The notes: a model not told the origin generated them from the letters alone. A DNA stretch of 64,000 nt from Candidatus Gottesmanbacteria bacterium RIFCSPLOWO2_01_FULL_43_11b (GCA_001780985.1 MFJV01000001.1:158980-222979), one strand, 5' to 3'. Shown: positions 11,012-60,224, numbered from the stretch's first letter. Numbers and translations: made by a program.

Positions 11012-11774
11012 CTTTTTTCTCCTTTTCCTTCGTCTCTTTCTTTTCTTCTTTCTTACTTTCTTTCTCTGTTTTTTCCCTTCCTTCTTTATATGCATCAGCG
11101 ATATATTTTGCAATGATTCGAATCGATCCTACCGCATCATCGTTTGCCGGGATGACAAAATTAATATCGGCCGGATCGGAATTAGTGTCAACCACACCGA
11201 CAATCGGGATCTCTCTGCGTTTCCCTTCACGGACTGCCGCGTCCTCTTTTCGTATATCGACGATAAAAAGTGCATCCGGAGGAGCATTGAGAGTAAGAAC
11301 CCCGCCATAAAATACGTTGAGTCTGCTTAGGTAGTGTCCAAGTTTCGTCTGTTCGTGCTTGGGAAACTTTTTCCATGCACCTGTTTTTTGCTCTTCTGCA
11401 AGTCTAATTATTTTTTTAATATTTTTGTGTACCTCATCCCAGTTGGTGAGGAATCCACCGATCCATCGTTGAGTCAGATATGGTGCACCGCAACTCTCTG
11501 CTAACTCTTTGACGATGCCACTTGCCTGGCGTTTGGTTGCGACAAAAAGCACAGTCCCGCCTCGTTGGGCAACTTCTTTGACAAATTGTGCTGCTGCCTC
11601 AAGACCTGTTTTTGTTTTGGCAAGGTCAATTATGTGGATGCCGTCTTTTTCGGCGTAAATAAATTCCGTTGCCTTTGGATTCCAGCGTTCGGCTTTATGC
11701 CCAAAATGGCACCCTGCTTCTAATAATTGTTGTAGTGTTATTTCTTCCATAAAAAAAGGCGCAACACGCGCCAA
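10995..11774 (-). CDS. rpsB: 30S ribosomal protein S2
   Basis: LLEAGCHFGH motif and an rpsB-tsf-frr gene order. The start may be the internal ATG at 11750. Confidence 0.92.
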   Translation of the reverse strand: MARVAPFFMEEITLQQLLEAGCHFGHKAERWNPKATEFIYAEKDGIHIIDLAKTKTGLEAAAQFVKEVAQRGGTVLFVATKRQASGIVKELAESCGAPYLTQRWIGGFLTNWDEVHKNIKKIIRLAEEQKTGAWKKFPKHEQTKLGHYLSRLNVFYGGVLTLNAPPDALFIVDIRKEDAAVREGKRREIPIVGVVDTNSDPADINFVIPANDDAVGSIRIIAKYIADAYKEGREKTEKESKKEEKKETKEKEKKDASKT

Positions 11775-11844
11775 AGTAATTGACTACGTGTTCCTTATCT
11801 CCGCCACTCATGACCCTTTTGGGAGGAACACTTATGAGTGTGAG

Positions 11845-13152
11845 TTATGGGACAGGAAACTTCTTAGTTAATATTATAACATTTTTTCTTATTGTCGCAA
11901 GTTTTTTGTTTTTCATTAGCTCTACACGGGTTTTTTTGAGAAATAAACCGCGGTCTACTTTCTTTTCAGGCAGTCGGTAGTGCGAAACTTCAGCGATAAC
12001 TTGGGCAATCCATTTCCCAATTTGGTTCATTTGTTTTTCCTTCATACCGCGAGTGGTAATTGCCGGTGTTCCGAGACGGATGCCTGAGGGATAAAAGGGC
12101 GGATTCGGGTCATGCGGGACACTATTTTTGTTTACGACAATATTGGCTACCTCAAGCGCTTCTGCAACAATATTACCTACGACTTTTTGGGGACGAAGAT
12201 CAACAACCATAAGATGATTATCCGTGCCATCGGTCGTTAATGTTAACCCCTGATCCATCAACGTTTTTGCTAACACTTTTGCATTCATTACAATTTGCTT
12301 AGCATATGCGCGAAATGCCGGTGTTGATGCTTCTTTGAGCGCGATGGCAATTGCGGCAGTTACATTATCATGCGGCCCGCCCTGGAGAGCCGGGAATACT
12401 GCTTTGTCAATTTTGTCTCCCATCATTGGATCTTTTTTTATACCCTGATCAGTTACCATGAGCATGGCACCTCTTGGACCCCGTAAGGTTTTATGTGTCG
12501 TGGTCATAATAATGTCTGCATACGGAACAGGTGTGGGATGAACACCGCCGATTATCAGCCCCGTAATGTGGGAAATATCTGCAAGGAAATATGCACCAAC
12601 ACTGTCGCAAATTTCCTTCCACCGTTTCCAGTCATAAATCCTTGGATACGCTGTTGTTCCGACAACAATTATCTTAGGCTTTGTCATAATCGCAAGATCT
12701 GCTACTTTGTCCATATTAATTCTGCCGTCTTCTTCAACATCGTACTGTGCTGGTCGGAAATATTTTCCTGAGAACGTTACTTGCGGATGGCCGTGTGTCA
12801 GATGTCCGCCGGCAGAAAGCTTGAGCCCCATTATTACGTCTCCTGGGTTAAGGAGCGCAAAATATACCGCAGCATTTGCAGGTGAACCGGAATAGGGTTG
12901 AACATTAACGTGAGGAACTTTAAATAATTTTTTGGCCCGTTCTATTGCGATATCTTCAATTTCGTCGATATACGTATTCCCCTGGTAGTAACGTTTATGA
13001 GGGTACCCTTCAGAATATTTATTCGTAAGAACCGAACCTGTTGCTTCCCGTACAGCCTTCGAGGTGTAGTTTTCGCTGGGAATCATTTCCAAAACTTCCG
13101 ATTGACGCTTTTCTTCAAGTGCTATTAATGATGATATTTCTGCGTCTGCCAT
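11845..13152 (-). CDS. glyA: serine hydroxymethyltransferase
   Basis: 435 aa with SENYTS, YSEGYP and TTTHKTLRGPRG (PLP lysine) motifs. Confidence 0.93.
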   Translation of the reverse strand: MADAEISSLIALEEKRQSEVLEMIPSENYTSKAVREATGSVLTNKYSEGYPHKRYYQGNTYIDEIEDIAIERAKKLFKVPHVNVQPYSGSPANAAVYFALLNPGDVIMGLKLSAGGHLTHGHPQVTFSGKYFRPAQYDVEEDGRINMDKVADLAIMTKPKIIVVGTTAYPRIYDWKRWKEICDSVGAYFLADISHITGLIIGGVHPTPVPYADIIMTTTHKTLRGPRGAMLMVTDQGIKKDPMMGDKIDKAVFPALQGGPHDNVTAAIAIALKEASTPAFRAYAKQIVMNAKVLAKTLMDQGLTLTTDGTDNHLMVVDLRPQKVVGNIVAEALEVANIVVNKNSVPHDPNPPFYPSGIRLGTPAITTRGMKEKQMNQIGKWIAQVIAEVSHYRLPEKKVDRGLFLKKTRVELMKNKKLATIRKNVIILTKKFPVP

Positions 13153-17568: not shown

Positions 17569-17611
17569 GAAGAGGTTAGGTTCTTTAAAAGAGGGCGGAA
17601 ATTGGAAAATT

Positions 17612-17755
17612 TAAAGCGTGTGGACCAGCCCCTCGCGAGGAGCTGGTATACGAGGAAGGGGAAAATCGAATAGCCCGCCAGTCGGCGGATAAATCTGCGG
17701 ATACCCCTTGGTAGCGCTCTCTACCACAACAATAGACAGAAATGACTATTGAGGA
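17612..17755 (+). promoter_or_regulatory. glmS ribozyme/riboswitch
   Basis: aA|GCG cleavage-site context at 17615/17616. P1 hairpin gaccagc..gctggt. Conserved core strings ACGAGGA and AUCGAA..UCGGCGGAU. Sits directly upstream of glmS. Confidence 0.75.
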
Positions 17756-17778
17756 GCCCGTCTCTCTTTCTAAACTTC

Positions 17779-19551
17779 ATGTGTGGAATATTTGGCTACG
17801 TTGGTCCTAGCCCTCATGGTGCAAAGATAGTTCTTGAAGGTCTCAAACGACTTGAATATCGCGGTTACGATAGTTGGGGAGTTGCTGTTGTACCTGCTTC
17901 AAAGGGTAAAATTGTCGTAAAGAAAAAAGCCGGAAGAATAGGCAAAGCTAGTGTTTCTGATATGCCAAAAGGGTCTGTTGCGTTCGGGCATACCCGCTGG
18001 GCAACCCATGGAGGAGTTACCGATGTTAATGCACACCCTCACCTTGACTGCACAGGAAATCTTGCTGTCATTCACAATGGTATTTTTGAAAACTATGAGA
18101 GTATAAAGCAGGATCTTATTAAAAAAGGGCACCGTTTTATCTCCCAAACAGATACCGAAGTTATCGCCCACCTCATTGAAGAATATGCAAAGACCATGAT
18201 GTTAAGTAAGGCAGTGCAACGGGCGTATAACGAAATGGAAGGTCTTAACGCATTCATAGTTATCCAGACAAAAGAACACCTCCTCCTTGGGGTAAGAAAT
18301 GGGTCACCCTTAGTCGTCGGATTCGGAGATCCGGAAAATTATTTGGCAAGTGATGCTGCAGCGCTCATTCCCCATACCCGGCAGGTTCATTTTCTTGAAG
18401 ATGATCAAATGGTAATTGTTGGAACTGATCAGGTAAACATATTTAACGCAAGAACCGGTGAACGCATTCGTCCGCTTAAACAGAAACTTACCTGGTCAGC
18501 AGAGCAGGCAGAAAAAGGAAAATTCCCTTATTTCATGCTGAAAGAAATTTATGAACAGCCCGGGCTTATTTCAGAAATTGCCGGAGAATCAACGATCCAA
18601 GCCAAAAAAATTGCGGAGGTTCTTAAAAACGCACATGGCGCCTATATCGTTGGCTGCGGAACTGCCGGATATGCTGCTCTTGCTGCTCAATATCTCTTTT
18701 CAGCCATATCAAACAGACACGTTAACTCTGTTATTGGCAGCGAATTTGGCTACCTCCAAAATTTTCTCGTGAAAAGAAGTGCCGTACTTGCCCTTTCACA
18801 ATCCGGCGAAACCATGGATATTCTTGAGGGAGTCAAGAAAGCCAAAGACAAAGGTGCAAAAATTGTTTCTTTGGTTAATGTCGTCGGATCCTCGCTTTGG
18901 CGGTTATCAGATGTAAGACTCCCAATTGGTGTAGGGCCGGAGAAAGGGGTCGCATCTACCAAAGCATTCATCGGGAAACTTACCCATCTCATACTTCTCT
19001 CTTACGCAATGATAGGCAAAATTACCAAGGGTCAGCGGATACTCACGCGGGCTGCAAAAGCAGCAACCGAGGTTCTCAAAGAGCAGCGGGTGAGTAAAAT
19101 AATGAAACTTGCAAAAAAACTCAAAAATACGGAACATATTTTTGTTATCGGGAGAGGGCTTTCATATCCTGCGGCGCTTGAAACAGCGCTAAAAATTAAG
19201 GAAATTTCCTATATCCATGCCGAGGGCTTGGCCGCAGGGGAACTCAAACACGGCCCACTTGCGCTTGTGACGAAAGGCATTCCCTGCATCGTATTTGCAC
19301 CCAACGATGAAACACAGGGAGCAAATCTTGCGGGAGCCATGGAAATGAAAGCACGAGGTGCGTATATTATCGGGATCTCACCCAAAAAGCATGAGGTTTT
19401 TGATTATTATCTGCCGGTTAAAGACGTGGGAGAGGCAACAATTATTCCCAATGTCATCGTTGCCCAGCTTCTGGCGTACTATTTAGCAATAGAGCGCGGC
19501 TTCGACCCCGATATGCCGAGGAATCTAGCAAAAAGTGTAACAGTAAAATGA
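17779..19551 (+). CDS. glmS: glutamine--fructose-6-phosphate aminotransferase
   Basis: Starts MCGIFGY (Ntn Cys) at ATG 17779, contains two SIS domains, and ends ..AKSVTVK. Confidence 0.93.
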   Translation: MCGIFGYVGPSPHGAKIVLEGLKRLEYRGYDSWGVAVVPASKGKIVVKKKAGRIGKASVSDMPKGSVAFGHTRWATHGGVTDVNAHPHLDCTGNLAVIHNGIFENYESIKQDLIKKGHRFISQTDTEVIAHLIEEYAKTMMLSKAVQRAYNEMEGLNAFIVIQTKEHLLLGVRNGSPLVVGFGDPENYLASDAAALIPHTRQVHFLEDDQMVIVGTDQVNIFNARTGERIRPLKQKLTWSAEQAEKGKFPYFMLKEIYEQPGLISEIAGESTIQAKKIAEVLKNAHGAYIVGCGTAGYAALAAQYLFSAISNRHVNSVIGSEFGYLQNFLVKRSAVLALSQSGETMDILEGVKKAKDKGAKIVSLVNVVGSSLWRLSDVRLPIGVGPEKGVASTKAFIGKLTHLILLSYAMIGKITKGQRILTRAAKAATEVLKEQRVSKIMKLAKKLKNTEHIFVIGRGLSYPAALETALKIKEISYIHAEGLAAGELKHGPLALVTKGIPCIVFAPNDETQGANLAGAMEMKARGAYIIGISPKKHEVFDYYLPVKDVGEATIIPNVIVAQLLAYYLAIERGFDPDMPRNLAKSVTVK

Positions 19552-19554
19552 TAC

Positions 19555-19860
19555 CTAACGGATTTCAGGAGAACCGACAAGTGTGACGTTTCCATACTCC
19601 GGAACTGAAGCATTCAATCGCCCTCCTTCAGTCATTTGTCCGACGCGTCCACCAAAATAGTTAACATTTCCATTATCTGATACCTGTACTTCTTCTCCCC
19701 AATGGAACGTCGCGGTTTCTCCGTCCACGACAACACGCAATCCATCAGCAATTCTTACGTCTCCAAGTAAAAATTCATGAATTCCCTGTAAAAGCTCTTG
19801 GTCAATAGGGGCAAATCCTTCTCCAGTTTGATAAATAGTTCCGCTTATGGTTGTTTTCAT
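19555..19860 (-). CDS. hypothetical protein
   Basis: 101-aa ORF whose start (19860) overlaps by 4 nt the 3' end (19857) of the upstream ThyA-like gene, consistent with translational coupling. Confidence 0.45.
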   Translation of the reverse strand: MKTTISGTIYQTGEGFAPIDQELLQGIHEFLLGDVRIADGLRVVVDGETATFHWGEEVQVSDNGNVNYFGGRVGQMTEGGRLNASVPEYGNVTLVGSPEIR

Positions 19861-21374
19861 AACTCCTTATTTGCCGCAGGATCCTGATTATATTTTTCCG
19901 CCTTGCCGAGTTTAATATAATATTCTGCACGTTGCAACTCTGTGCCGATGTAGATGAGGTGGCTGGGTAAAACCAAGTAATCGCCAATGTTGATCATTTG
20001 AATGTAGAGTTCCATCGCAGTTTTCCCCCGCCATTCTTTGAGAAGCAATCCTCCCTCTGGCGCGTAGAGCTTCACTACAATTTCATATATTTTTGATTTT
20101 TCGGCATACTTTGTCGGTCTGCCTACTTGATTTGACTGCTCAATTTCTATTGTTATATTTCCACGCCTGTCATCCTCAAACATTTGACGACTCGTATATC
20201 CTAGTTCTTTATCGTAGTTATCTTTGAGTATTTTTTCGACAAGTTCGTAATCGTCGCTATAGATATGGGCTGAATGGGTAATCATGACAAACGGGCCCAT
20301 TGTGTAGTCCGTCTCGTCGCTGACGAGTTTTTGGAGCTTCAAGAGACTAAACACGTTTCGCGGCCACCCGTGCACCATATCCTGACTTCGAAAGTGCGTT
20401 GTACAAAAGAGTTTGCTGTCTTGAATGGAAAATAACACTTGGGTGAGGCAAGGTGTATCACCTTTATTTACCTGATTCCAGTCTTCGCTCACTTTTGCAG
20501 TAAAAGCAACCATTTTTTTGCTAAACGGCCGATTTTTGATAAGTTCAATAATCTTTGCGATCTGATCGACATTGTCATGATTCCGTAATCTCTGACCGTA
20601 TGTATAAGCTATACCGGAAATTTGTTTAGCGGAAAGCACTTGCGGGTAATATTGTAAAAGCTCTGTTTTAGAAAACGGAAAATAGTGCGGTAAATACGGA
20701 TCTTCTGGATTCTCTTTATACACAACTGCCATCACGTTGAGAAGCTCTTTGAGTTCATTTTCCTGGGTATATCGTGTTTGCTTATTTCTCCCGTAACGCA
20801 TAATATTTTGAAGAATTTTAAGCCAGGTTTGGGCCGCTGTATCGCCGTCAATACGAAACCCAATCTGTTCACTGGGGTATGTGAAAGGCTTTGGTCTACT
20901 CGTTGGGAAAACCTTGGGTTTTGTGAAGGGTTGAACACGCTCCTTACTCAATATATCAACCGTCTTTTGGAGCTCACTGACGGGCTTTCCGCGAAGATTG
21001 ATCACTTCTACACTTTTTCGAAACTGGTCAATAGCATCTTTTCCAATCTCTTTTTCTATCTGCCCCTTCTTTTCGTCACCGACGATGAAAAACTCATTGT
21101 CTACCCCATTTTGCATGAGATTTACTAGCGCCTGCCCGCTTCTCGATAAATCAGCACCCCATAGCACTATTTTCCTCACATGCGGGTTTGCATAGATATT
21201 CCGAATCATGGCTGAAATTCCGGCCGACGAGTAGAGATTCCCGATTGCACAGTAATTTGTGGCCTCAAGCATCTTGGCCACTACCTGTCGTTCCGTCCAC
21301 ATAACGGCAACCCCCACGGGATTGTTCGGATCTTTCACTTGGAGCACGTGACGATATAGTATTGGCCAATCCAT
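19857..21374 (-). CDS. thymidylate-synthase (ThyA)-family enzyme with about 250-aa N-terminal MtrA-like/DUF4346-like extension
   Basis: The C-terminal half carries ThyA-fold motifs: TPCLTQVLF (catalytic Cys region), RSQDMVHGWPRNVFS and THSAHIYSDD. The N-terminal AIGNLYSSAGISAMIRNIYANPHVRKIVLWGADLSRSGQALVNLMQNGVD resembles the MtrA-like domain (recalled from memory). Confidence 0.65.
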   Translation of the reverse strand: MDWPILYRHVLQVKDPNNPVGVAVMWTERQVVAKMLEATNYCAIGNLYSSAGISAMIRNIYANPHVRKIVLWGADLSRSGQALVNLMQNGVDNEFFIVGDEKKGQIEKEIGKDAIDQFRKSVEVINLRGKPVSELQKTVDILSKERVQPFTKPKVFPTSRPKPFTYPSEQIGFRIDGDTAAQTWLKILQNIMRYGRNKQTRYTQENELKELLNVMAVVYKENPEDPYLPHYFPFSKTELLQYYPQVLSAKQISGIAYTYGQRLRNHDNVDQIAKIIELIKNRPFSKKMVAFTAKVSEDWNQVNKGDTPCLTQVLFSIQDSKLFCTTHFRSQDMVHGWPRNVFSLLKLQKLVSDETDYTMGPFVMITHSAHIYSDDYELVEKILKDNYDKELGYTSRQMFEDDRRGNITIEIEQSNQVGRPTKYAEKSKIYEIVVKLYAPEGGLLLKEWRGKTAMELYIQMINIGDYLVLPSHLIYIGTELQRAEYYIKLGKAEKYNQDPAANKEL

Positions 21375-27966: not shown

Positions 27967-28663
27967 CATGTTTATTCCCGGTTTTCACCGGGGCATGGAC
28001 TATATCTTCATCCGCAAAAATTGACGTTTTTCTGGATGAACCGAACCAATTATTTTTGCAAAATCGTTGTAAGACCTTGCCGAAATATAAAATCTCCAAT
28101 AATTCGGATCAACCGTTTTACTAGGATTATGAATTACTCCACAATGAATACTTAATTCTTCTAAATAGTGTTTTACTTGTAAAAGATCTTGCTTGTCCTT
28201 TTGACAAAAATACAAGTAATACCTCACCGAAGAATTTTTAGCAATACCACCTTCTGCATCGAAATAACCTCGGATATATTCGATTTTGTCGTTCTTAGAA
28301 CGTATTTCAATATCTCGTAAAATCTTTTTCGGAAATTCTACTATCCAAAGATTACGAGACTTTCCTTCTTTATATATCCAAGCTCCAACATGTAATTTAC
28401 GAATTCCTATTTTTAGAAACTGCGCAAATTCTCTACTGTTAGTTGCTATTCGATAGGTAGATTGCCGACTGGTACCATCGTGAGCCATTCCCAATAAATA
28501 TGGTTTCGTCATATGCGGCGCCAACGTGTAGTCTCTACGGAGTCCCCGATATAATCAGGGTTCCCTCGGTATTCCCATATGTTGATTATAAACCAAGCAT
28601 GAAGGGTTCACCGATACAGTTGGATTTTCCCATACCCTTACGGATATGGGTCGCAACAAACTT
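27967..28663 (-). mobile_element. group I intron (697 nt) in the 16S 3' region (inside the 1492R primer site), carrying a homing endonuclease ORF
   Basis: It splits AAGTCGT|AACAAGG. The 5' exon ends in U and the intron ends in G. Core strings AGAGACUACACG (28525..28536) and GAUAUAGUCC (27997..28006) flank the ORF. Confidence 0.8.
28000..28524 (-). CDS. LAGLIDADG homing endonuclease (intron-encoded)
   Basis: 174 aa with two LAGLIDADG-like motifs (YLLGMAHDGT and YIRGYFDAEGG). The TAG stop lies inside the intron core element GAUAUAGUCC. Confidence 0.82.
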   Translation of the reverse strand: MAPHMTKPYLLGMAHDGTSRQSTYRIATNSREFAQFLKIGIRKLHVGAWIYKEGKSRNLWIVEFPKKILRDIEIRSKNDKIEYIRGYFDAEGGIAKNSSVRYYLYFCQKDKQDLLQVKHYLEELSIHCGVIHNPSKTVDPNYWRFYISARSYNDFAKIIGSVHPEKRQFLRMKI

Positions 28664-29056
28664 ACGACTTAGTCCCCATCGCTGAGTTCGGCTTCGACCG
28701 TAAAAACGGCCTTCAGCCGCCCCCAACTTTGTTGGCTTGACGGGCGGTGTGTACAAGACCCGAGAACGTATTCACCGCAGCCTTCTGATCTGCGATTACT
28801 ACCGATTCCGACTTCATGAGGGCGGGTTGCAGCCCTCAATCTGAACTGAGGCGAAATTTCAGGGATTTGCTTGCCATTACTAGTTTGCATCCCATTGTTT
28901 TTCGCCATTGTAGGGTGTGTGTTACCCAGGGTATAAGCGCCGTGCTGACTTGACGTCGTCCGTTCCTTCCTCCCCGATACATATCGGGGCAGTCTCCGAT
29001 GACACTTATAACATCGGATACGGGTTGCGCTCGTTCTCCTACTTAAAGGAACACCC

Positions 29057-29087
<31 letters not shown>

Positions 29088-29202
29088 GCTGTGATACCAT
29101 CCTTGCGGATAGCCTACTATTTCTAGCGGGTTAAAACGGTACCATGTCAAACCCTGGTAAGGTTTTTCGCTTTGTCTCGAATTGAACCACACGCTCCACC
29201 GG

Positions 29203-29234
<32 letters not shown>

Positions 29235-29625
29235 TAATCTTGCGATCGTACTCCCCAGGCGGTCTGCTTAACGCGTTAGCTTACGTCAGTCCCCCTTGCG
29301 GCGGACCAACTAGCAGACATGCGTTTAGGGCTAGGACTACGCAGGTCTCTAATCTGCTTCGCTCCCCTAGCTTTCGTGTCTCAGCGTTAGGTGTGGGCCA
29401 GAAAGGTGCCTTCGCCTTTGGTGTTCCTCATGATATCAACGCATTTCACTGCTTCACCATGAGTTCCCCTTTCCTCTCCCATCCTCAAAGACTCCCCATC
29501 TCGAACCCAACGCCGAGGTTAAGCCTCGGGCTTTCAGGTTCGATGCGGAAATCCGCCTACACGACACTTTACGCCCAGTGAATCCGGATAACGCTTGCAC
29601 CCTACGTATTACCGCGACTGCTGGC

Positions 29626-29880
29626 CCGCCACAATTTTTTGTAGCGAACTTTGGACTATATCATCACCCCACAGATTGGGGGTCTCGCGTGTAGTCTCTG
29701 AGGACTCTCCCCGCCATCCTTTCATTATAAATGAAGGCGGAGGTTGCCTGCTGATTGTCTTGATACATGCTTGCTTTCGCAAAACTATTTCGCGGACATA
29801 TCAAGGTGTTCCAGCATATAGCGAGATTTTCTTTTACCGTATTACTACAGTAACTACGCACCATCCGATTACATCGAATC
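29626..29880 (-). mobile_element. ORF-less group I intron (255 nt) in the 16S 515-region
   Basis: It splits AACTACGT|GCCAGCAG. It has the same AGAGACUACACG (29688..29699) and GAUAUAGUCC (29653..29662) core strings as the other intron, with a short P8-like hairpin between them. It starts after U and ends in G. Confidence 0.75.
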
Positions 29881-30286
29881 ACGTAGTTTGTAGGTGCTTA
29901 TTCGCCAAACCTCGATGATCTGGCAAAAGAGGTTTACATACCGAAATACTTCATCCCTCACGCGGCGTCGCTCGGTCAGGCTTTCGCCCATTGCCGAATA
30001 TTCCTAGTTGCTGCCATCCGTAGATGTATAGCCCGTGTCTCAGTGCTATTGTGGGGGGTCGCGCTCTCACGCCCCCTACCCGTCATCGCCTTGGTAGGCC
30101 ATTACCCCACCAACAAGCTGATAGGAGCAAGGCCGCTCTTCCTCCGTGCCGTTACGCACTTTGATCTTACGACCTCATGGAATATTACCCCGTCTTTCGA
30201 CGAGCTATGTTCCAGAAAAAGGTACGTTCCTTGCTTATACTCACCCGTCCGCCACTAATCTTTCGACCGTTCAACTTGCATGCCTA

Positions 30287-30329
<43 letters not shown>

Positions 30330-30470
30330 AAAAAAAATTAACGTCCCGGATATCATGATTCGCTTACGCTCATCACCATCCGGGTCCGGCTGATGTCGCA
30401 ACGCGACATAATAGCCGGATTCCTATCACCATTCGTTTGTCAAATGTTAATGTGCGACTCTCAATGAGCG

Positions 30471-30574: not shown

Positions 30575-31828
30575 TCAAGAGCCTTGAGGATTTAGCCTTG
30601 TGCTATTTAAATAAGGAAGTCGTTTTGCGGCATCCGTTAAATCCCAATCTTTCGTTTCTTTGTTAAAATGAAGCAGTGTCCACGGAAGAAAATCGATTTT
30701 CCCAGGCGCGTATGTTTGCACTGCAGCGTGGTCCCCTCCACAAAAAAGACCTACATGCGATATAAAATCTTCTGCTTTTCCACCCTGTCGTTCCCATTGA
30801 AGCATGACATGGTCTATCGCACGGTAGTAAAGATCATATCCGATTTGCGCAAACCAATCGTTATAAACTGGAAAATCTGATTTTTGGAATACCGGCATTC
30901 CCATTTCCGCAATAAGTACTTCTTTATCACGGAGAAATCCCGTACTTTTTTGTTCTAACAACCATTCAAATACTTCTTTCTTATCCTTGTATAAATCAAA
31001 CACTGATTGCGGCATAAGCGGTTCAAGAGGATGATCATAGGCAAAGTAATAATCAAAACCGACGGCTTCTAACGCATCCCCCGCTCGTTTAACGAGCGTT
31101 TCAACATCTTTACGCCATTTCGAGCGGTCTGCAAATGCGGTATTAGTAATTATCGTCGTCATTATTTTAGGCTTATCTGTTCGTAAAGAATATGCTTGGT
31201 GCGTTACATCAATCATCTTGACAATTGTGGACTGCTCAAAATTTTTAAAGAATGAATTGTTGACCTCATTCATAACTTGCACAAATGTTGGTTGCAAGCC
31301 TGCTTGGTCACAGATCATTTGCGCTTTTTCAATAAATGATTGATAGACTAAAAGAAAAGCAGTTTCATCGTGTTGGGCAAGATCAACCATCCATTCTGCC
31401 GGAGAAAATAAAACGAGAGCTGATAAAGAAAGTCCTGCTTCTTTCATTGCTTTGAGGCTTTCTCGATACGACTTTTCGATATTCAAGTCAAACGACCCAT
31501 CGTCTCGCATGAGTTTTCCAAGTCGAAACTCAGTCCGCACCCCAGCTACTCCGAGTTCTTTCAGTTTCGTATAAAAACTCAACCTTTGGTCAAGGGTATA
31601 TTCCAACTCATCGGGTAGATAATCAGAAACAAACGGCACAACGCGACGCTTCGCCCGAAACTCAGCTGCGTCAGTCCTCATATACATCGGCGCTTCTTTA
31701 CTACCCCCGGTAGTCTCACTTCCACGTAAATTAAACATAATAGAAGACGCTACTGCTAGTTTTGCCCCTTTTCCCAGTAATCGCAAAAAGTCTCTTCTAG
31801 AAAAACGAGGCTGTTCAGGAACGCCCAT
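30575..31828 (-). CDS. Tat-signal secreted TIM-barrel glycoside-hydrolase-like protein
   Basis: N-terminal FSRRDFLRLLG twin-arginine motif. VMNEVN and AEMG segments resemble the clan GH-A acid/base and nucleophile positions. Confidence 0.5.
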   Translation of the reverse strand: MGVPEQPRFSRRDFLRLLGKGAKLAVASSIMFNLRGSETTGGSKEAPMYMRTDAAEFRAKRRVVPFVSDYLPDELEYTLDQRLSFYTKLKELGVAGVRTEFRLGKLMRDDGSFDLNIEKSYRESLKAMKEAGLSLSALVLFSPAEWMVDLAQHDETAFLLVYQSFIEKAQMICDQAGLQPTFVQVMNEVNNSFFKNFEQSTIVKMIDVTHQAYSLRTDKPKIMTTIITNTAFADRSKWRKDVETLVKRAGDALEAVGFDYYFAYDHPLEPLMPQSVFDLYKDKKEVFEWLLEQKSTGFLRDKEVLIAEMGMPVFQKSDFPVYNDWFAQIGYDLYYRAIDHVMLQWERQGGKAEDFISHVGLFCGGDHAAVQTYAPGKIDFLPWTLLHFNKETKDWDLTDAAKRLPYLNSTRLNPQGS

Positions 31829-51246: not shown

Positions 51247-51504
51247 ATGGCCCGCCGAAGACCTGCATTATTGCGACAAAAAGACATTGCTTCATGGAAT
51301 TTCATCATATTCCTCACTCTTGCTTTTATTCTTCTGGTTATCGTTTTGACTGCAAGTAACCGTATCGCTCTCGATGTTCGTAGTCGTGCAGCCGGAGCCT
51401 GTCCGTCTGTGACACTGCCGCGAGCAGAAGATTGTCCTGACGGATGGACGTTTAAGCGTGATACAACGGGTTGTGTGGCTTTTTTCTGCGAAGCTAAGCC
51501 TTAA
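51247..51504 (+). CDS. small membrane-anchored Cys-rich protein
   Basis: A TM helix followed by a DVRSRAA motif and a 4-Cys module. Confidence 0.5.
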   Translation: MARRRPALLRQKDIASWNFIIFLTLAFILLVIVLTASNRIALDVRSRAAGACPSVTLPRAEDCPDGWTFKRDTTGCVAFFCEAKP

Positions 51505-53248: not shown

Positions 53249-53491
53249 CAGGCTATGAAAATGACAAAAGAAACAAACGCCATACTTTTATTAACAACGT
53301 TATCTGCATTCGCAAATCGTGACATCACCGGAATTCCAACCCCTCAATCAATAGAGCCTCTTCCATTTCATCCAAAAGGACCGATTATCAAACTTCCGGA
53401 AAAACCTAAACTATACGTTCGGACAAAAAATAAAGGACCACACAAACGCGGTACTTGACAGGATTGTACGTATCTTCTACTATTTCTCTCA

Positions 53492-53875
53492 ATGGACGGA
53501 GAACCGACGTCTGCCCCAATTTCTTCTGCCCCATCAATATCTCCAAAAGGCAAAAAGGCCGGATGGAAGCTGATTCTCTTAGGTGTCCTTCTTTTGGCTG
53601 CACTTAGTCTTGGAGGAACAGCCGTCTACCAGGCAATTCGTGGCGCACAACCTACCCCGACCCCAACACCGGCTCCCACGCCAACTCCTGAGCCGACTCC
53701 AACACCGCAGCCCTCACCGACAAAGAAACCAACGCCGACGCCAACCAAAAAACCAACGCCGACAGCAACACCAACATCAGCGCCAACCGGAACACCAACT
53801 CCCACACCAACTGAAGGCCCTACGCCAACACCGACACCGACCGGCACGCCTGCGCCCACTCCGACTGGCACATAA
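53492..53875 (+). CDS. membrane-anchored Pro/Thr-rich linker protein
   Basis: A TM helix followed by about 80 aa of PTPTP low-complexity sequence. Confidence 0.55.
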
Positions 53876-53924
53876 ATTTTTCTCCCCTCTTGATTTTTTC
53901 ACACTATGATGTTTAACTTATTCT

Positions 53925-54440
53925 ATGGAAGAAAAGACAAAAGCAGGTGAAGGAGAAAATTCAGCACTGTATTACGGCATTGGAGCTGCAGTTTTGGTTA
54001 TCTTGGTTGCCGGAATTTATATTTTCCGTCCGAAAACATCTCCCACCACATCTCCTGTTTCTCCTGGTGCACAAGTAACTGATATCCCCCTTGTACGGCC
54101 AACCGGCCCAATCACTGGCTTAGCCTGTGAACTCCAATATTACAACCCGGTTGTGGGAAAGAAAGAATTCTACGTGAGTGTTGAGGGAGCGGCGCTACCT
54201 GATGCTAAATCAGTCGACTGCAACTTTACTTTTAGCGTTGCAGGAAGCGTTGTGAAGACAGACAGTATTACTGATGCAAAACTTGTTGAAGAAAAATCCC
54301 GAAACGGAAAACTATTCACCTGCACGACAGTGCCGCTTGAACTGGAACCTAGTGTACCTACAACAGTTGACTTTGCCCTCTCTGATGATCTGAAAAATAC
54401 AGCCACCTGTTCCTCCACCTTCCTCTTCCCCGCCCCCTAA
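53925..54440 (+). CDS. membrane-anchored hypothetical extracellular protein
   Basis: N-terminal TM plus a beta-rich domain of about 110 aa. Confidence 0.55.
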   Translation: MEEKTKAGEGENSALYYGIGAAVLVILVAGIYIFRPKTSPTTSPVSPGAQVTDIPLVRPTGPITGLACELQYYNPVVGKKEFYVSVEGAALPDAKSVDCNFTFSVAGSVVKTDSITDAKLVEEKSRNGKLFTCTTVPLELEPSVPTTVDFALSDDLKNTATCSSTFLFPAP

Positions 54441-54518
54441 AGCAGTCCGTATCCTATATTACACTCCTTTTCTACGGAACTCATATAATGGATATGCGTC
54501 TATGATTGGGCAATAAAA

Positions 54519-55733
54519 ATGAAAAAGTATGGGCTTGTAGTTCTCATATTTTTACCGTTAGTCTTCCTTTTTCCTACCAGGGCGTTTGCCGAAGATTCCT
54601 CTTACTCCTGCTCCGTCACTCATCAGACAGTTTCCACAATTCCAAGGAGCTTCTTTGGCATGTTCACTCCCATCAACCGCATACCCGTGTCCGGGGATCA
54701 ACAACTGAAACTTTTTCAACGAATCAAGGATTCGGGTATTTATTCCGTCCGGGTGCAAATACAATGGCACAGAATTGAAAGGGTTGAGAATGAATATCAA
54801 TGGGAAAATTACGATTCCATCCTCCAAACTATCGAGAGTGTTGGCCTTAGAGCCTTGCCGGTACTTATTGGTGTACCTTCATGGGCCCGCCCATCAACGG
54901 GTCCAATGGCCAGAAAAATCGTCATAGATCCCGAACGCTATGAAGATTGGCAAGATTTCGTTGCTGAAGCAACCAGACGATACGGTGTAAACGGCGGCAC
55001 GGTTGCAAACGTTGCGTCTGACTGGGAAATCTGGAATGAGCCGAATGGGGAAAATTTCTTTCAAGGAACCCCGCAGGACATGGTCACAACCCTCAACCTG
55101 GCCTATCAGACAATCAAAAGCATCGATCCGCAATCAAAAGTCTGGTCGCAGGCTGCTTCCACCACAGGCTTAACCGGCACGAGAGATTTTTTTGAAGCGA
55201 TAGTCAAAGACGGATATTTCGATGTTCTTACCATCCATCTTTATGCAACCACCGAAAAAGCAATCGAACTTGCAACTTCAGCCCAACAATACCTTCGAGA
55301 AAACGGCAACAGCGTCAACAAAGAGGCAAAACTGTCAATTACCGAAACCAATCCCCTGCCTGTCGGGCACCAATGCGAATCCGTCAACAGTCTTAGTGAA
55401 CAGGAAATGGCCGATATAATAACTAATCACTATGCTTGTCTTTCCCAGGCGGGTGCCGATTCTGTCTACTATTTCATGGCGCTGGATTTACCTGATCCGT
55501 CATGTTCAGGAGGTACGGTTAAAGTAGGTATCCTAAACCCGGATCTGACCCCGCGCGCTTTATACAGTGCAATCAAAGAAATGATAACAATCGTCAGTCC
55601 GCAAACCCCTTTAGGCGACCTCAATTCTGACGGGAAAGTAGACATTTTCGACTACAACATCCTCGTTGAGAATTTCGGCAATCCGTACACAATTTTCGAC
55701 TATAATACACTTGTAGAGCGTTTTGGTACGTAA
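54519..55733 (+). CDS. secreted clan GH-A glycoside hydrolase with C-terminal dockerin-like module
   Basis: Signal peptide ..PTRAFA|ED. WEIWNEPN (acid/base) and SITETN (candidate nucleophile). The C-terminus is GDLNSDGKVDIFDYNILVENFG plus a second half-repeat. Confidence 0.72.
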   Translation: MKKYGLVVLIFLPLVFLFPTRAFAEDSSYSCSVTHQTVSTIPRSFFGMFTPINRIPVSGDQQLKLFQRIKDSGIYSVRVQIQWHRIERVENEYQWENYDSILQTIESVGLRALPVLIGVPSWARPSTGPMARKIVIDPERYEDWQDFVAEATRRYGVNGGTVANVASDWEIWNEPNGENFFQGTPQDMVTTLNLAYQTIKSIDPQSKVWSQAASTTGLTGTRDFFEAIVKDGYFDVLTIHLYATTEKAIELATSAQQYLRENGNSVNKEAKLSITETNPLPVGHQCESVNSLSEQEMADIITNHYACLSQAGADSVYYFMALDLPDPSCSGGTVKVGILNPDLTPRALYSAIKEMITIVSPQTPLGDLNSDGKVDIFDYNILVENFGNPYTIFDYNTLVERFGT

Positions 55734-55743
55734 AGGAAAATTT

Positions 55744-56316
55744 ATGATGCCACCTTCACCAAGTTCTGAAGACCTCACGGAGATTACTGAGGTACAAAAG
55801 CCAAAACGGAGATGGTGGGTTGTCGTGGCGATTCCTCTGGGAATATTCGTTCTGCTGGGAATTGGTTTTTACCCGTTGATACAAACTACTGCTCCAACTC
55901 CAACACCCAAACCCACACCGATACTGCAAGAGTCCAATGCGTCAACTGTCCTTTCGGTAGATAGCGACAACGCAACAAGCACTCCTCTACTAGTTTCCGT
56001 CCCAATTACTATTAATACAGGAAAAAATACAGTGTCTGCTGTCGAACTTCATCTCTCTTTCGACCCCCAAAAGTCAAAGAATGCGAGCGTCTCCGCAGGG
56101 GCATTTTTTACCGACCCGACAATTTTAAAAAATGAAGTTGACCAAACAAACGGAAAAATCACCTTCATCCTTGGCTCTCTCACCCCCAAGCAAGGAACCG
56201 GTGTCGTCGCCATTCTCTCTCTCGAGCCCGTCGGAACGATCACTCTAGCTATAGATCCTGAGACGAAAGTTGCGGCTATCGGAGAAAAAGAAAATGTTCT
56301 CAAAAGCTACAAATGA
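55744..56316 (+). CDS. membrane-anchored cohesin-like domain protein
   Basis: TM, a PTP linker, then a beta domain of about 130 aa (ITINTGKNTVSAVELHLSFDP...GTGVVAILSLEPVG) resembling type I cohesins. ATG 55744 is preceded by AAGGA. Confidence 0.55.
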   Translation: MMPPSPSSEDLTEITEVQKPKRRWWVVVAIPLGIFVLLGIGFYPLIQTTAPTPTPKPTPILQESNASTVLSVDSDNATSTPLLVSVPITINTGKNTVSAVELHLSFDPQKSKNASVSAGAFFTDPTILKNEVDQTNGKITFILGSLTPKQGTGVVAILSLEPVGTITLAIDPETKVAAIGEKENVLKSYK

Positions 56317-57284
56317 AACGATTCGCGCTCTTGCTTCCGTTACTTTTGCTTATCATAGCCATTCCGATCGGAGTCTACTATATTGGGCAAAGACAAGATA
56401 TTCGAGATCGGGCTGCTCCATCAACAACGCTCTCACTGTCTCCTTCATCCATATCAAAACAACAGGGTAATACTCTTTCCCTCGATGTAACTATCGACAC
56501 GGGAGAAAATACAGTCTCTGCGATTGAACTTGTCGTCAACACCGATCCGGCAAAAGTAAAAATAACAGGTATCGCTGCCGATGATTTTTTTAGCCAATCC
56601 CTCATTGAACCGGCGTTCACCGACAGCCGTGCCACCATGACCCGCGGTACACCACCGACATCTCCGCGTCAAGGAACCGGAACGGTGGCTACAGTCACAT
56701 TAGAAGTCGTCGCGGGAAACGGAACCGCCCAGATTACACTGGCAGGATCTCAAGTTGCTGGCATTGGTGAGCAGGGAAATGTTTTGAGTGGTACGGCGCC
56801 TGCAACGGTCACGATCACCTCTTCGACAAATCCGACTCCGACGCCCACTCCAACATCAGCTCCCGGGAGCACACCCACGCCCACACCCACCCCAACTCCA
56901 ACCCCAACAGAATCAGGGGAAACAGGAGCTGTTTCTCTTACAAGTCCGGTAAGCGGAGCAACGGTAACGACTGATACACCCACGCTTAAGGGAACCGCGC
57001 CTGCCGGCAGCACGGTCACGATTACTATTTACAGTGATCCGATCACGGTCACCGTAACCGCAGATAGTAATGGACGTTGGACCTATACTCCAACCCAATC
57101 ACTTTCCGATGGACAGCATCAGGTCGTCATATCAACAGCGGCAGAAGACGGATCGACGCTGACAGAGTCATCATCCTTTTATGTCCAAACGCAGGATATT
57201 CCGGTAACCGGAAATAACTGGCTTTACATAACCCTGATTGTCGCAGGGTTATTTTTCATTGGTTCTGGTATGCTGATACTGTGA
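56313..57284 (+). CDS. cohesin-like + Ig-like domain surface protein with LPXTG-like (IPVTG) C-terminal anchor
   Basis: N-terminal TM, cohesin-like LSLDVTIDTGENTVSAIELVVNTDP...GTGTVATVTLEVV, a PT linker, a Big-like TPTLKGTAPAGSTVTITI..ADSNGRWTYTP domain, then IPVTG plus a hydrophobic tail. Confidence 0.6.
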   Translation: MKRFALLLPLLLLIIAIPIGVYYIGQRQDIRDRAAPSTTLSLSPSSISKQQGNTLSLDVTIDTGENTVSAIELVVNTDPAKVKITGIAADDFFSQSLIEPAFTDSRATMTRGTPPTSPRQGTGTVATVTLEVVAGNGTAQITLAGSQVAGIGEQGNVLSGTAPATVTITSSTNPTPTPTPTSAPGSTPTPTPTPTPTPTESGETGAVSLTSPVSGATVTTDTPTLKGTAPAGSTVTITIYSDPITVTVTADSNGRWTYTPTQSLSDGQHQVVISTAAEDGSTLTESSSFYVQTQDIPVTGNNWLYITLIVAGLFFIGSGMLIL

Positions 57285-58066
57285 AGAAACTATCGATCAT
57301 TGTCCTTTTTATTTCTCTCTTGTTTCTGGCTGTAGTCGCCCTGACTGTATCTCTCGTCCAGCGAAGGCAGGAGGTGCGCACACGGGCAACCGCCGCTACC
57401 ACACTCTCCATTATCCCAAGCTCCGTCCAGGCACATATTGGCGATACGTTCTCCGTCGACGTGTGGATTAACACCGGAGAAAATACGGTCTCCGCTGCAA
57501 CCGTTGTTGTAACGTTTAACAGCAACGTGCTTACTGGGGTTTCAATTCAGCCGGGAACATTCCTCAGCGTGCCCCTTGAACCAGGCAGTTTCTCCGCAGG
57601 TGTCGCTCGCATAAGCCTCGGAAGTCAACCGACTGCGCCGGTCCAAGGAAGTGGGGCTTTATTTACCCTCACGTTTCAGGCAACCGGTGTTGGCACGACA
57701 ACTATCACATTTGATCCAACCACCGTCGTTGCCGCTCTCGGACACACAACGAGTGTCCTGACGGGAACGACCCCCGGCTCAATCACCGTCTCCCTTGTTC
57801 CCACTCCAACTCCCACACCAACAATCACGCCTACCCCAACCCCATCTCCAACACCCACGCCCACAGCAACACCTACCCCAACACCGCTGCCTCCTCGTCC
57901 TGGAGATCTAGATCTTGATAGAGATGTCGACATTTACGATTACAATCTCCTCGTTACTGATTTTGGAAAAACGGGGACAGCGGGTTTTATTGCGGCTGAC
58001 ATTGACAAAAACGGCAAAGTGGATATTTTTGACTACAATATTCTTGTGGAAGAATTCGGGAAATAA
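57281..58066 (+). CDS. cohesin-like + dockerin protein (adaptor-scaffoldin-like)
   Basis: Cohesin-like FSVDVWINTGENTVSAATVVVTFNSN...GSGALFTLTFQATG, a PT linker, and two dockerin repeats DLDLDRDVDIYDYNLLVTDFG and DIDKNGKVDIFDYNILVEEFG. Confidence 0.65.
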   Translation: MKKLSIIVLFISLLFLAVVALTVSLVQRRQEVRTRATAATTLSIIPSSVQAHIGDTFSVDVWINTGENTVSAATVVVTFNSNVLTGVSIQPGTFLSVPLEPGSFSAGVARISLGSQPTAPVQGSGALFTLTFQATGVGTTTITFDPTTVVAALGHTTSVLTGTTPGSITVSLVPTPTPTPTITPTPTPSPTPTPTATPTPTPLPPRPGDLDLDRDVDIYDYNLLVTDFGKTGTAGFIAADIDKNGKVDIFDYNILVEEFGK

Positions 58067-59560: not shown

Positions 59561-60166
59561 ATGAATAAATCTCATCCCCTTTCAAAGAAAAAACTTCAAC
59601 AATTCTATGGACAGGGAAATTCACTGTCTGAAATTGCGACTCTGTTCGATTGTTCTGTTCATAAAGTGATTTATTGGATGCAACGTTACGCAATTGCACG
59701 TCGTTCTAGAAGTGATGCGGCGTATATAAAATTAAATCCTAACGGCGACCCATTCTTTATTCAAAAAGAAAAATCGTTATTTCTCTACGGTCTTGGATTA
59801 GGAATCTATTGGGGTGAGGGAACAAAAGTAACTGGTCTTGTTCGAGTGACCAATTCTGATCCTGCGATGATCAAGGTTTTTAGAGAATTCTTGATACAAA
59901 TATGCGGAGTGCGAGATGATAAAATTCATTACAGCATTGTTGCGTTCAATGATAGTCATATTCCGACAGTTCAATCATTCTGGGCGACCTATCTGAAGAT
60001 TTCTCCTGACAAATTTGGTAAAATCGTACAGATACCGCCGCAAGGCAAAGGCTCATATAAGCGAAAGTCTCAATTTGGCGTCTGCTCTATTTCAGTAGGT
60101 AATATTAAACTGAAACATTGGATCATGCAGGAGCTGGAAAAAATTAAAGAAGCCCGGATAGTTTAG
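59561..60166 (+). CDS. HTH + LAGLIDADG-like (homing-endonuclease-like) protein, free-standing
   Basis: N-terminal HTH (GNSLSEIATLFDCSVHKVIYWM) and a single LAGLIDADG-like motif LFLYGLGLGIYWGEGTK. The 3' end overlaps tRNA-Thr by 15 nt. Confidence 0.4.
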   Translation: MNKSHPLSKKKLQQFYGQGNSLSEIATLFDCSVHKVIYWMQRYAIARRSRSDAAYIKLNPNGDPFFIQKEKSLFLYGLGLGIYWGEGTKVTGLVRVTNSDPAMIKVFREFLIQICGVRDDKIHYSIVAFNDSHIPTVQSFWATYLKISPDKFGKIVQIPPQGKGSYKRKSQFGVCSISVGNIKLKHWIMQELEKIKEARIV

Positions 60167-60223
60167 TGGCAAAACGTTCCCTTGGTAAGGGAATGAGCGG
60201 GGGTTCGATTCCCCCTCCGGGCT
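60152..60223 (+). tRNA. tRNA-Thr (anticodon GGU)
   Basis: gcccgga ta gttt agtggca aaac g ttccc uuGGUaa gggaa tgagc ggggg ttcgatt ccccc tccgggc t. Confidence 0.88.
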
Positions 60224-60224
60224 C

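Follow-up and report, generated by a model that had tools for sequence, protein, structure and literature searches.

A 64,000-nt stretch, one strand, of the genome of Candidatus Gottesmanbacteria bacterium RIFCSPLOWO2_01_FULL_43_11b (GCA_001780985.1 MFJV01000001.1:158980-222979), here called the window, was analyzed computationally for a cluster of genes encoding cohesin- and dockerin-containing proteins and a secreted glycoside hydrolase (GH). The cohesin-dockerin pair, a model for how proteins assemble from modules with high affinity, has found wide use in biotechnology. The host is a bacterium belonging to the candidate phyla radiation (CPR), a group of ultra-small, mostly uncultured bacteria that are poor in biosynthetic capacity. 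In an earlier note on this DNA, six co-directional genes had been described as a complete-looking, cellulosome-like kit, and all six open reading frames (ORFs) were indeed found at the coordinates and with the features given there, as listed below together with the dockerin of ORF3.

53492..53875, + strand: ORF1, a transmembrane (TM) helix and a Pro/Thr linker (ORF present)
53925..54440, + strand: ORF2, a membrane-anchored protein with a 4-Cys extracellular domain (46 homologs, no Pfam match)
54519..55733, + strand: ORF3, a secreted GH39/PslG-like glycoside hydrolase with a C-terminal short dockerin (Pfam, PDB, and AlphaFold2 [AF2])
55608..55730, + strand: the short (truncated) dockerin of ORF3, 41 aa (core in 105 fetched proteins)
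55744..56316, + strand: ORF4, an N-terminal TM anchor and a single cohesin (Pfam Cohesin, 32.5 bits)
56313..57284, + strand: ORF5, a leader/TM segment, a cohesin, a Big_13 domain, and a C-terminal IPVTG tail (Cohesin, 23.6 bits; Big_13, 40.1 bits)
57281..58066, + strand: ORF6, a leader/TM segment, a cohesin, a Pro/Thr linker, and a two-repeat dockerin (Cohesin, 41.1 bits; AF2)

ORF3 to ORF6 form a translationally coupled, operon-like cassette. The ATG of ORF4 lies 11 nt past the stop codon of ORF3 and is preceded, 8 nt upstream, by an AGGA-type ribosome-binding site (an alternative TTG start for ORF4 is present at 55723), the stop of ORF4 and the start of ORF5 overlap as ATGA, and the stop of ORF5 overlaps the GTG start codon of ORF6 as GTGA. 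Local hidden Markov models (HMMs) built from homologs detected no other cohesins or dockerins in the 64-kb window, and a degenerate DNA motif for GNPYTIFDYN, a string in the dockerin of ORF3, was found once in the window, with 0 occurrences expected by chance. These two results argue that the features of the cassette are not fortuitous.

The unit is made up of these four genes (54519-58066) and not of the six that had been proposed. In three relatives, represented by L014, L015, and L016 (L numbers denote loci from other genomes that were compared with the window), a member of the ORF2 family was present in the same gene backbone, without cohesin or dockerin neighbors. The order of the backbone in the window and the three relatives was Wzy/TPR, def, fmt, a small Cys-rich protein, M50 protease, ArsR, ORF2, a variable stretch, aminotransferase, AdoMet decarboxylase, and GDSL lipase, and the backbone proteins were 34 to 82% identical between the window and these relatives. 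ORF1 and ORF3 to ORF6 were absent at the syntenic loci of all three, which are natural variants lacking the cassette. Because the backbone was kept and ORF3 to ORF6 were missing, we consider the latter a cassette in a variable slot of a conserved backbone.

The descriptions given earlier of ORF1, as a TM-anchored pure Pro/Thr linker, and of ORF2, as a TM-anchored protein without an assigned domain, were both accurate. ORF2 consists of a TM helix and a domain of roughly 110 aa with four Cys residues; neither ORF2 itself nor its 46 homologs (158 to 190 aa) had a Pfam match, and a profile search of the PDB returned nothing below an E value of 0.3. The idea that ORF2 is a hidden cohesin or carbohydrate-binding module (CBM) was rejected, as a profile-profile comparison (hhalign) with the cohesin alignment covered 4 columns only. 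Its membership in the kit was also rejected, since synteny marks ORF2 as a backbone gene, i.e., a neighbor of the cassette and not a demonstrable part of it. ORF1 has a basic N terminus and one hydrophobic helix and then only Pro/Thr linker; its exact sequence was not among public gene products, and it may be a "brush" protein or what is left of a TM-linker-module gene. Ahead of ORF1 lies a promoter-like sequence (TTGACA-17-TACTAT at 53455-53483), and such sites were no more common than in shuffled sequence; the scan for promoters and terminators was for this reason discarded as evidence. The GC content of the cassette was 0.46 to 0.52, versus 0.43 for the window, a shift that might hint at horizontal transfer but for much of which coding rich in Pro, Thr, Ala, and Gly accounts.

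ORF3 had been described as a clan GH-A hydrolase with a signal peptide, an assignment upheld by its leader, by Pfam, and by matches to PslG in both sequence and fold. Residues 1 to 24 form a Sec-type leader (ending in TRAFA, followed by ED), and the motifs WEIWNEPN (residues 169 to 176) and SITETN (residues 273 to 278) contain the predicted acid/base E174 and the predicted nucleophile E276, respectively. Pfam Glyco_hydro_39 scored 39.6 bits (cutoff, 26), and the UniRef name for ORF3 is that of a GH39-domain protein. The best match by sequence in the PDB was PslG (5bx9; E = 1e-13), with both catalytic motifs aligned. Among 40 ORF3 homologs, E174 was invariant and N173, H240, and E276 were at least 90% conserved. 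The AF2 model of ORF3 contained a (beta/alpha)8 barrel at about residues 40 to 360 with a predicted local distance difference test score (pLDDT) of >95, and Foldseek returned PslG first (E = 1e-18), followed by other GH39 enzymes. The barrel ended at about residue 360, directly followed by the dockerin helices, and no C-terminal beta-sandwich was present in the model; the catalytic part of ORF3 is some 320 aa long, versus 410 to 500 aa in the targets of the fold search. PslG is a GH39 endoglycosidase of Pseudomonas aeruginosa that cleaves the Psl exopolysaccharide. ORF3 resembles it in the barrel, the NEP acid/base, and the TE nucleophile, which all align, and differs from it in having a dockerin in place of the C-terminal beta-sandwich domain and in lying, in the window, outside any polysaccharide-synthesis operon. 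Elsewhere in the window, a 417-aa protein (30575-31828, − strand) with a twin-arginine-like leader (RRDFLRLLG), a weak clan GH-A/GH53 match (25.7 bits), and no dockerin is a second candidate secreted glycosidase.

The tail of ORF3, GDLNSDGKVDIFDYNILVENFGNPYTIFDYNTLVERFGT, is composed of a 12-residue Ca loop (DLNSDGKVDIFD), helix 1, an NPYT turn, and helix 2 (IFDYNTLVERFG), with the helices placed by AF2 at residues 376 to 386 and 392 to 402. In this short dockerin (…FGNPYTIFDYN…), a single Ca loop is combined with two nearly identical helices, and NPYT takes the place that a second loop and a linker have in the long form. Its 38-aa core was present in 105 fetched proteins, at the extreme C terminus in 98 of them, and the residues Y24-T-I-F-D-Y-N30 were essentially invariant; on these grounds, the module is not a product of decay. 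The dockerin-like, Ca-binding tail pointed out in the earlier note is thus dockerin derived and does have a Ca loop, and it represents a conserved single-loop class instead of a degenerate fragment. At positions 10 and 11 it has Ile-Phe or Ile-Tyr. The short-dockerin profile matched only a single repeat of solved dockerins, and the closest similarity of the module was to the long CPR dockerin of its own lineage.

In an exhaustive comparison of the 41-aa tail with 1.84 billion representative proteins, 2025 matches were obtained at E ≤ 1e-3 and 69 at E ≤ 1e-10, numbers that mix short dockerins, long dockerins, and other EF-hand-like repeats; among the 150 best matches, about 60 covered the whole 38-aa module in one piece. 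The short dockerin was 70 to 89% identical across proteins of many different metagenomes, and its fusion partners included GH5, GH10, GH16, GH39, GH43, pectate-lyase-like, F5/8-type-C, sulfatase, and sialidase-like domains and others. The exact coding motif for GNPYTIFDYN was found in five stretches of three species-representative genomes, a search too stringent to describe the distribution of the module. A count of dockerins in the source genome from homolog tables was discarded as unreliable, as the same search had missed ORF4 and ORF5. In L018 the identical architecture was found with short dockerins only, including an adaptor composed of a TM segment, a cohesin, and a short dockerin; since this system, adaptor included, uses no other class, the short dockerin appears to be a working module. 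Upstream of this all-short-dockerin cluster, in "bacterium DBS2-1.bin48," lies a giant Ser/Thr/Ala-rich ORF (L018 1-6938, + strand) of >2,300 aa that runs off the end of the locus and has a called length of 2,889 aa. A short-dockerin enzyme with an adjacent cohesin gene was also found on a contig binned as "uncultured Gammaproteobacteria" (L012, CAZOUV010000009.1), which is either a mis-binned CPR contig or a case of transfer outside the CPR.

ORF6 carries the full two-repeat dockerin that had been predicted, with two canonical Ca loops and a profile that aligned over its full length with solved dockerins. The loops, DLDLDRDVDIYD and DIDKNGKVDIFD, are 12 residues each (57905-57940 and 57998-58033), and each is followed by a helix (residues 218 to 227 and 249 to 258; AF2 pLDDT, 88 to 97). 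The dockerin of ORF6 fits two segments of about 22 residues, each with the Ca loop D-x-[DN]-x-[DN]-G-x-[IV]-[DN]-x-x-D and a helix, a pattern that the tail of ORF3, with its single loop, fails. A long-dockerin profile built from 27 tails aligned end to end with the B. cellulosolvens Cel48 dockerin (Doc, 2y3n_B; E = 1.4e-9); the next matches were the dockerins of C. perfringens GH84, CipA, Xyn10B, and CelS, all of which ranked above calmodulin EF-hands.

All three cohesin-like domains scored or folded as cohesins. On Pfam Cohesin (PF00963; cutoff, 24.1 bits), ORF6 scored 41.1 bits, ORF4 scored 32.5 bits, and ORF5 was marginally under the cutoff with 23.6 bits; the cohesins of ORF5 and ORF6 were 39% identical (E = 5e-28), and pairwise identities among the three domains ranged from 36 to 44%. 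The shared strings (I/V)(N/D)TG(E/K)NTVSA and QG(T/S)G reported for these domains were found. In ORF4, a short Pro/Thr linker joins a TM segment (about residues 23 to 46) to a cohesin (about residues 70 to 190), in keeping with the earlier description of ORF4 as a TM-anchored cohesin-like protein, and the UniRef name of ORF4 is that of a cohesin-domain protein. ORF5 consists of a leader/TM segment, a cohesin (about residues 35 to 170), a Pro/Thr linker, and an Ig-like domain at residues 214 to 291 (Pfam Big_13, 40.1 bits). In ORF6, a leader/TM segment is followed by a cohesin (residues 38 to 172), a Pro/Thr linker, and the dockerin (residues 207 to 261). The cohesin fold was modeled on ORF6, the domains of ORF4 and ORF5 being assigned by sequence. 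For ORF6, AF2 (30-sequence alignment) gave a model with the nine-stranded beta-sandwich (jelly-roll) fold of cohesins and a mean pLDDT of 92.7; the 37 highest-ranking PDB matches by Foldseek were cohesins without exception, which indicates that this domain is a cohesin and not the generic Ig-like domain that the earlier note had allowed for. The best fold matches were type I cohesins, namely, C. acetobutylicum CohA2 (6kgf) and C. cellulolyticum 1g1k (template modeling score, 0.77 to 0.82; root-mean-square deviation, about 2.1 Å); the noncellulosomal cohesin 2xdh of Archaeoglobus fulgidus was also among the matches.

With respect to anchoring, ORF4 has a clear predicted N-terminal TM anchor, and ORF5 is a putative envelope-anchoring cohesin protein that ends in IPVTG and 23 hydrophobic residues (57198-57281). 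Among 111 ORF6 homologs, 20 ended in [LIVP][PA]x[TSA][GAS] and a hydrophobic tail (LPETG, LPEAG, IPVTG, and VPVSG types), a recurrence that favors a sortase-type signal. Other ORF5-like cohesins (L005 9366-10181, L007 9367-10206, L010 3236-4180, L017 11323-12477, and L018 11950-13272) end in a conserved amphipathic C-terminal helix, e.g., …FVRKVLSLFGIRF and …INSIVSFLKNLFGK, not in an LPXTG-like tail, and this helix looks like an alternative, uncharacterized anchoring device. ORF5 and ORF6 begin with a leader composed of MKK, about 20 hydrophobic residues, and xQxQE(L/I/V)Rx(R/K)A(A/T)PAT, which many homologs have too; it was seen in 29 of 400 fetched proteins, where it stands ahead of cohesin domains, and may be a lineage-specific secretion or processing motif; we know of no described equivalent of xQxQE(L/I/V)Rx(R/K)A. 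The leader motif was also seen (LDVRSRAAGA) on the small Cys-rich, 85-aa backbone protein at 51247-51504 (+ strand).

The arrangement recurred in other genomes. In two Gottesmanbacteria-like genomes (L005 and L007/L008), the same three proteins were encoded in another order (cohesin-dockerin, TM-cohesin, and C-terminally anchored cohesin), adjoining dockerin-tagged sulfatases, other enzymes, and polysaccharide-synthesis genes. The parts list of a genome labeled Patescibacteria (L010/L011) was the same as that of the window, with short-dockerin enzymes, a 186-aa TM-cohesin, a 315-aa cohesin, a 261-aa protein with a cohesin and a long dockerin, and a long-dockerin enzyme. In L019 and L020 the order was a dockerin enzyme, a TM-cohesin of about 195 aa, and a cohesin ending in LPETG or in Big_13 and IPVTG. 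Orthologs of ORF4 with the same layout (171 to 196 aa) and counterparts of the ORF5-like cohesin were present in L005, L007, L010, L019, and L020, and an ORF6-like cohesin-dockerin adaptor was present in L005, L007, and L011. At every locus examined, genes for dockerin-bearing enzymes (sulfatases, GH5, F5/8-type-C, beta-helix, and DUF4434 proteins) were immediately beside cohesin genes. A neighbor-joining tree of the cohesin domains contained three classes (ORF4-like, ORF5-like, and adaptor) and placed the cohesin of ORF6 in the ORF5-like class, apart from the other cohesin-dockerin adaptors; with some 130 aa and no support values, this tree is a hint only. In L017, a 385-aa cohesin ORF (11323-12477, + strand; local HMM E = 4.5e-29) directly follows a DUF4434-dockerin enzyme; it was missing from the public gene calls, in which two short minus-strand ORFs are called instead.

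Taken as a whole, these results suggest, with a probability that we put at about 0.72, that the ORF3-ORF6 cassette tethers a secreted glycan hydrolase to the CPR cell envelope through monovalent cohesin-dockerin contacts. The logic of anchor, adaptor, and enzyme put forward in the earlier note remains the most economical reading of the parts. ORF3, a GH39/PslG-like endo- or exo-glycosidase with a 41-aa single-loop dockerin, would be exported by its Sec leader, and its short dockerin would dock, presumably in a Ca-dependent manner, onto a monovalent surface cohesin. ORF4 would offer one cohesin near the membrane on its N-terminal TM anchor, and ORF5 would offer one further out, by means of IPVTG and the hydrophobic tail, which might either be embedded in the membrane or be moved to the wall by a sortase encoded elsewhere. 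ORF6 would be a monovalent adaptor with one cohesin and one dockerin, whose long dockerin would fit into the cohesin of ORF4 or ORF5 and whose own cohesin would be a further docking site for cargo. A linear chain would result, running from the envelope anchor through an optional adaptor to the enzyme, with no multi-enzyme scaffold, and tethering would keep the hydrolase and its sugar products beside the scavenging cell. The substrate is more likely to be exopolysaccharide, biofilm, or another complex glycan than crystalline cellulose.

Several results weigh against tethering as proposed here. The short dockerin was modeled at moderate confidence only (pLDDT, 57 to 74). On Pfam Dockerin_1 (PF00404), ORF6 scored 19.3 bits and ORF3 14.0 bits, both below the cutoff of 22.9; a precomputed PF00404 match is present in many homologs. 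The Pfam searches suggested earlier thus recovered the cohesins of ORF4 and ORF6 and left both dockerin tails, and marginally the cohesin of ORF5, under threshold. ORF3 lacks the beta-sandwich found in PslG and in GH39 xylosidases, shares only about 20% identity with PslG, and is the single dockerin-bearing enzyme in the window. The IPVTG-like tails of ORF5 and of the 20 ORF6 homologs with such tails have no basic end, and the NCBIfam LPXTG-anchor model did not match ORF5 at E ≤ 1. No Pfam Sortase match was obtained among almost all window ORFs of at least 85 aa (about ten, mostly housekeeping-like, went unscanned), nor was a sortase found beside the LPETG/IPVTG homologs in the neighborhoods of L019 and L020. 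The sortase-type anchor suggested earlier for ORF5 is therefore a candidate only, with IPVTG and the hydrophobic tail in its favor and the lack of a basic tail, of a model match, and of a sortase in the window or beside homologs against it. The N termini of ORF5 and ORF6 are long hydrophobic helices followed by a charged conserved motif, and these helices may stay uncleaved and serve as anchors. ORF6 would then be membrane bound and not a free adaptor; cleavage of the leader would therefore decide between these two states of ORF6.

Three other explanations were weighed against tethering. The clustering of cohesin, dockerin, and a glycoside hydrolase could point to a true cellulosome, a multi-enzyme, cellulose-degrading complex on scaffoldins, and equivalent Microgenomates proteins have been termed "cellulosome" components in the literature (PMC9123182). 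We consider this very unlikely, since ORF4, ORF5, and ORF6 have a single cohesin each and therefore cannot gather several enzymes. A CBM match was found in none of the six proteins, the sole dockerin-bearing enzyme in the window is PslG/GH39-like and not a GH48, GH9, or GH5 cellulase, and sulfatases and lectin-domain proteins are among the partner enzymes seen in relatives. With monovalent cohesins, no CBM match in the six proteins, and an enzyme that is not a cellulase, the label "cellulosome-like" was an overstatement. It is unlikely, too, that the cassette is mainly a device for adhesion or host attachment (episymbiosis), or for the capture of dockerin-tagged enzymes from related cells, with display of its own enzyme not the main role: the short dockerin was C-terminal in 98 of 105 proteins, most of those with a recognizable domain are enzymes, cohesin genes lie consistently beside such enzyme genes in the same genome, and nothing points to a host-side partner. 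Such a role would nevertheless agree with the presence of three cohesins versus two dockerins in the cassette, with the Ig-like Big_13 domain of ORF5, which is typical of adhesins, with the identity of the short dockerin across metagenomes, which makes cross-strain compatibility conceivable, and with the widely held view that CPR bacteria are host or community dependent.

The third explanation is that these are structural, envelope or S-layer-type Ig-fold proteins whose EF-hand tails are Ca-stabilized C-terminal extensions engaged in no specific pairing. The subthreshold Pfam scores of both dockerins and, marginally, of the ORF5 cohesin would be compatible with this, and noncellulosomal cohesins of unknown function are widespread, that of A. 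fulgidus (2xdh) being among the fold matches. The fold matches of ORF6 were, however, specifically cohesins, the long dockerin aligned over its full length with solved dockerins, and three cohesin and two dockerin classes were conserved and tightly linked across loci. As this conserved linkage is hard to explain otherwise, an interaction between cohesin and dockerin is favored, and purely structural proteins seem quite unlikely.

Tethering through single cohesins has its closest known counterpart in Ruminococcus flavefaciens, a rumen species. In that organism, ScaE is a single cohesin attached to the wall by sortase, ScaC is an adaptor with one cohesin and one dockerin, and enzymes and noncellulosomal proteins can dock straight on the cell-surface cohesin (PMC11557425, PMC12270676). 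ORF5 is a candidate for a ScaE-like, monovalent anchoring protein with an LPXTG-type C-terminal signal, differing from ScaE in the missing basic end and in that no sortase was found in the window or the homolog neighborhoods, and ORF6 resembles ScaC in its single cohesin and single dockerin. Unlike R. flavefaciens, the cassette has no multi-cohesin primary scaffoldin (ScaA or ScaB), and hence no multi-enzyme complex is expected from it. The cohesin fold of ORF6 is closest to type I, versus the type III cohesins of R. flavefaciens, and the cassette resides in a CPR bacterium whose genome is about 1 Mb in size.

The short dockerin likewise has a precedent. Duarte et al. (J Biol Chem 2025, PMC12270676) describe five group 2 dockerins of R. 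flavefaciens, each of about 40 aa with one Ca repeat, as the sole functional dockerins known to be naturally truncated; these single-loop modules bind cohesin with high affinity, and a single ScaE cohesin can accommodate two of them (PMC12270676). The CPR short dockerin is similar in its size of about 40 aa, its single Ca repeat, and its C-terminal position on a secreted protein. Each class co-occurs, within one organism, with a two-repeat class that is longer and closely related to it, and one member of each is located on a cohesin-containing adaptor (for the CPR class, in L018). In contrast to group 2, the CPR module keeps both helices, with NPYT replacing the second Ca loop and the linker, has Ile-Phe at positions 10 and 11 versus the Gly-Arg recognition pair of R. 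flavefaciens groups 2 and 4, and is represented by 105 fetched proteins of many enzyme types, versus five sequences. Judged from these sequences, the CPR short dockerin is an analog of independent origin and not a member of the R. flavefaciens family.

A bolder proposal, which we advance tentatively and regard as possible at best, is that the GNPYTIFDYN module forms another family of functional, naturally truncated single-Ca-loop dockerins, the second after that of R. flavefaciens, which evolved independently and is far larger. In genomes that, like this one, have both forms, the short dockerins of enzymes and the long dockerin of the adaptor might then be read by different cohesin classes, giving a two-specificity, three-tier relay (membrane, wall, and adaptor) for hydrolase display. 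Because the short-dockerin tag is so conserved, capture of hydrolases released by related cells would also be conceivable. If the proposal is true, a large natural family would indicate that a single Ca loop suffices in another lineage as well, and short dockerins could be used as compact affinity tags and as a marker for secreted Microgenomates enzymes in metagenomes.

The earlier note had considered such proteins unexpected in a genome of this kind, a view at odds with the published record. Bell et al. 2022 (PMC9123182) reported cohesin and dockerin proteins of Microgenomates in the Cand. Shapirobacterales proteome and cite Geesink 2020 for a "cellulosome" in Cand. Roizmanbacterium. Those reports resemble ours in CPR supergroup, in groundwater origin, and in the presence of cohesin/dockerin proteins alongside glycoside hydrolases; they concern domain presence, termed a cellulosome, and the available passages do not describe a monovalent set, a cassette structure, or a short dockerin class. 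The cohesin/dockerin cluster as such is one more case of a kind already known for Microgenomates, and the main new element is the short dockerin class of ORF3. The all-monovalent cohesin set, the cassette nature, and the large single-loop dockerin family appear undescribed in the literature searched. A minimal system with one cohesin per protein, holding scavenging enzymes on the surface, would provide a concrete and testable feeding mechanism for CPR bacteria in biofilms and aquifers.

Further features of the window were observed outside the cassette. A 201-aa ORF (59561-60166, + strand) overlaps the tRNA-Thr gene at 60152-60224 and had no Pfam match at E ≤ 1e-3; it was present at the same place in L015 and absent in L014 and L016, and this ORF abutting tRNA-Thr is a variable, possibly mobile gene. 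No 23S rRNA gene was found in the window. The 16S rRNA gene (28616-30335, − strand) is 1720 nt long owing to a group I intron at 29631-29890 (Rfam RF00028, 57 bits), and a LAGLIDADG_3 homing-endonuclease-like ORF (28000-28524, − strand) lies just downstream of it. A glmS ribozyme (17604-17761, + strand; Rfam RF00234, 43.7 bits) is located directly upstream of the glmS gene (17749-19551). A 505-aa protein (19857-21374, − strand) combines MtrA-like, thymidylate-synthase, and PterinBD-DUF4346 domains in an unusual fusion, and its gene adjoins that for dCTP deaminase.

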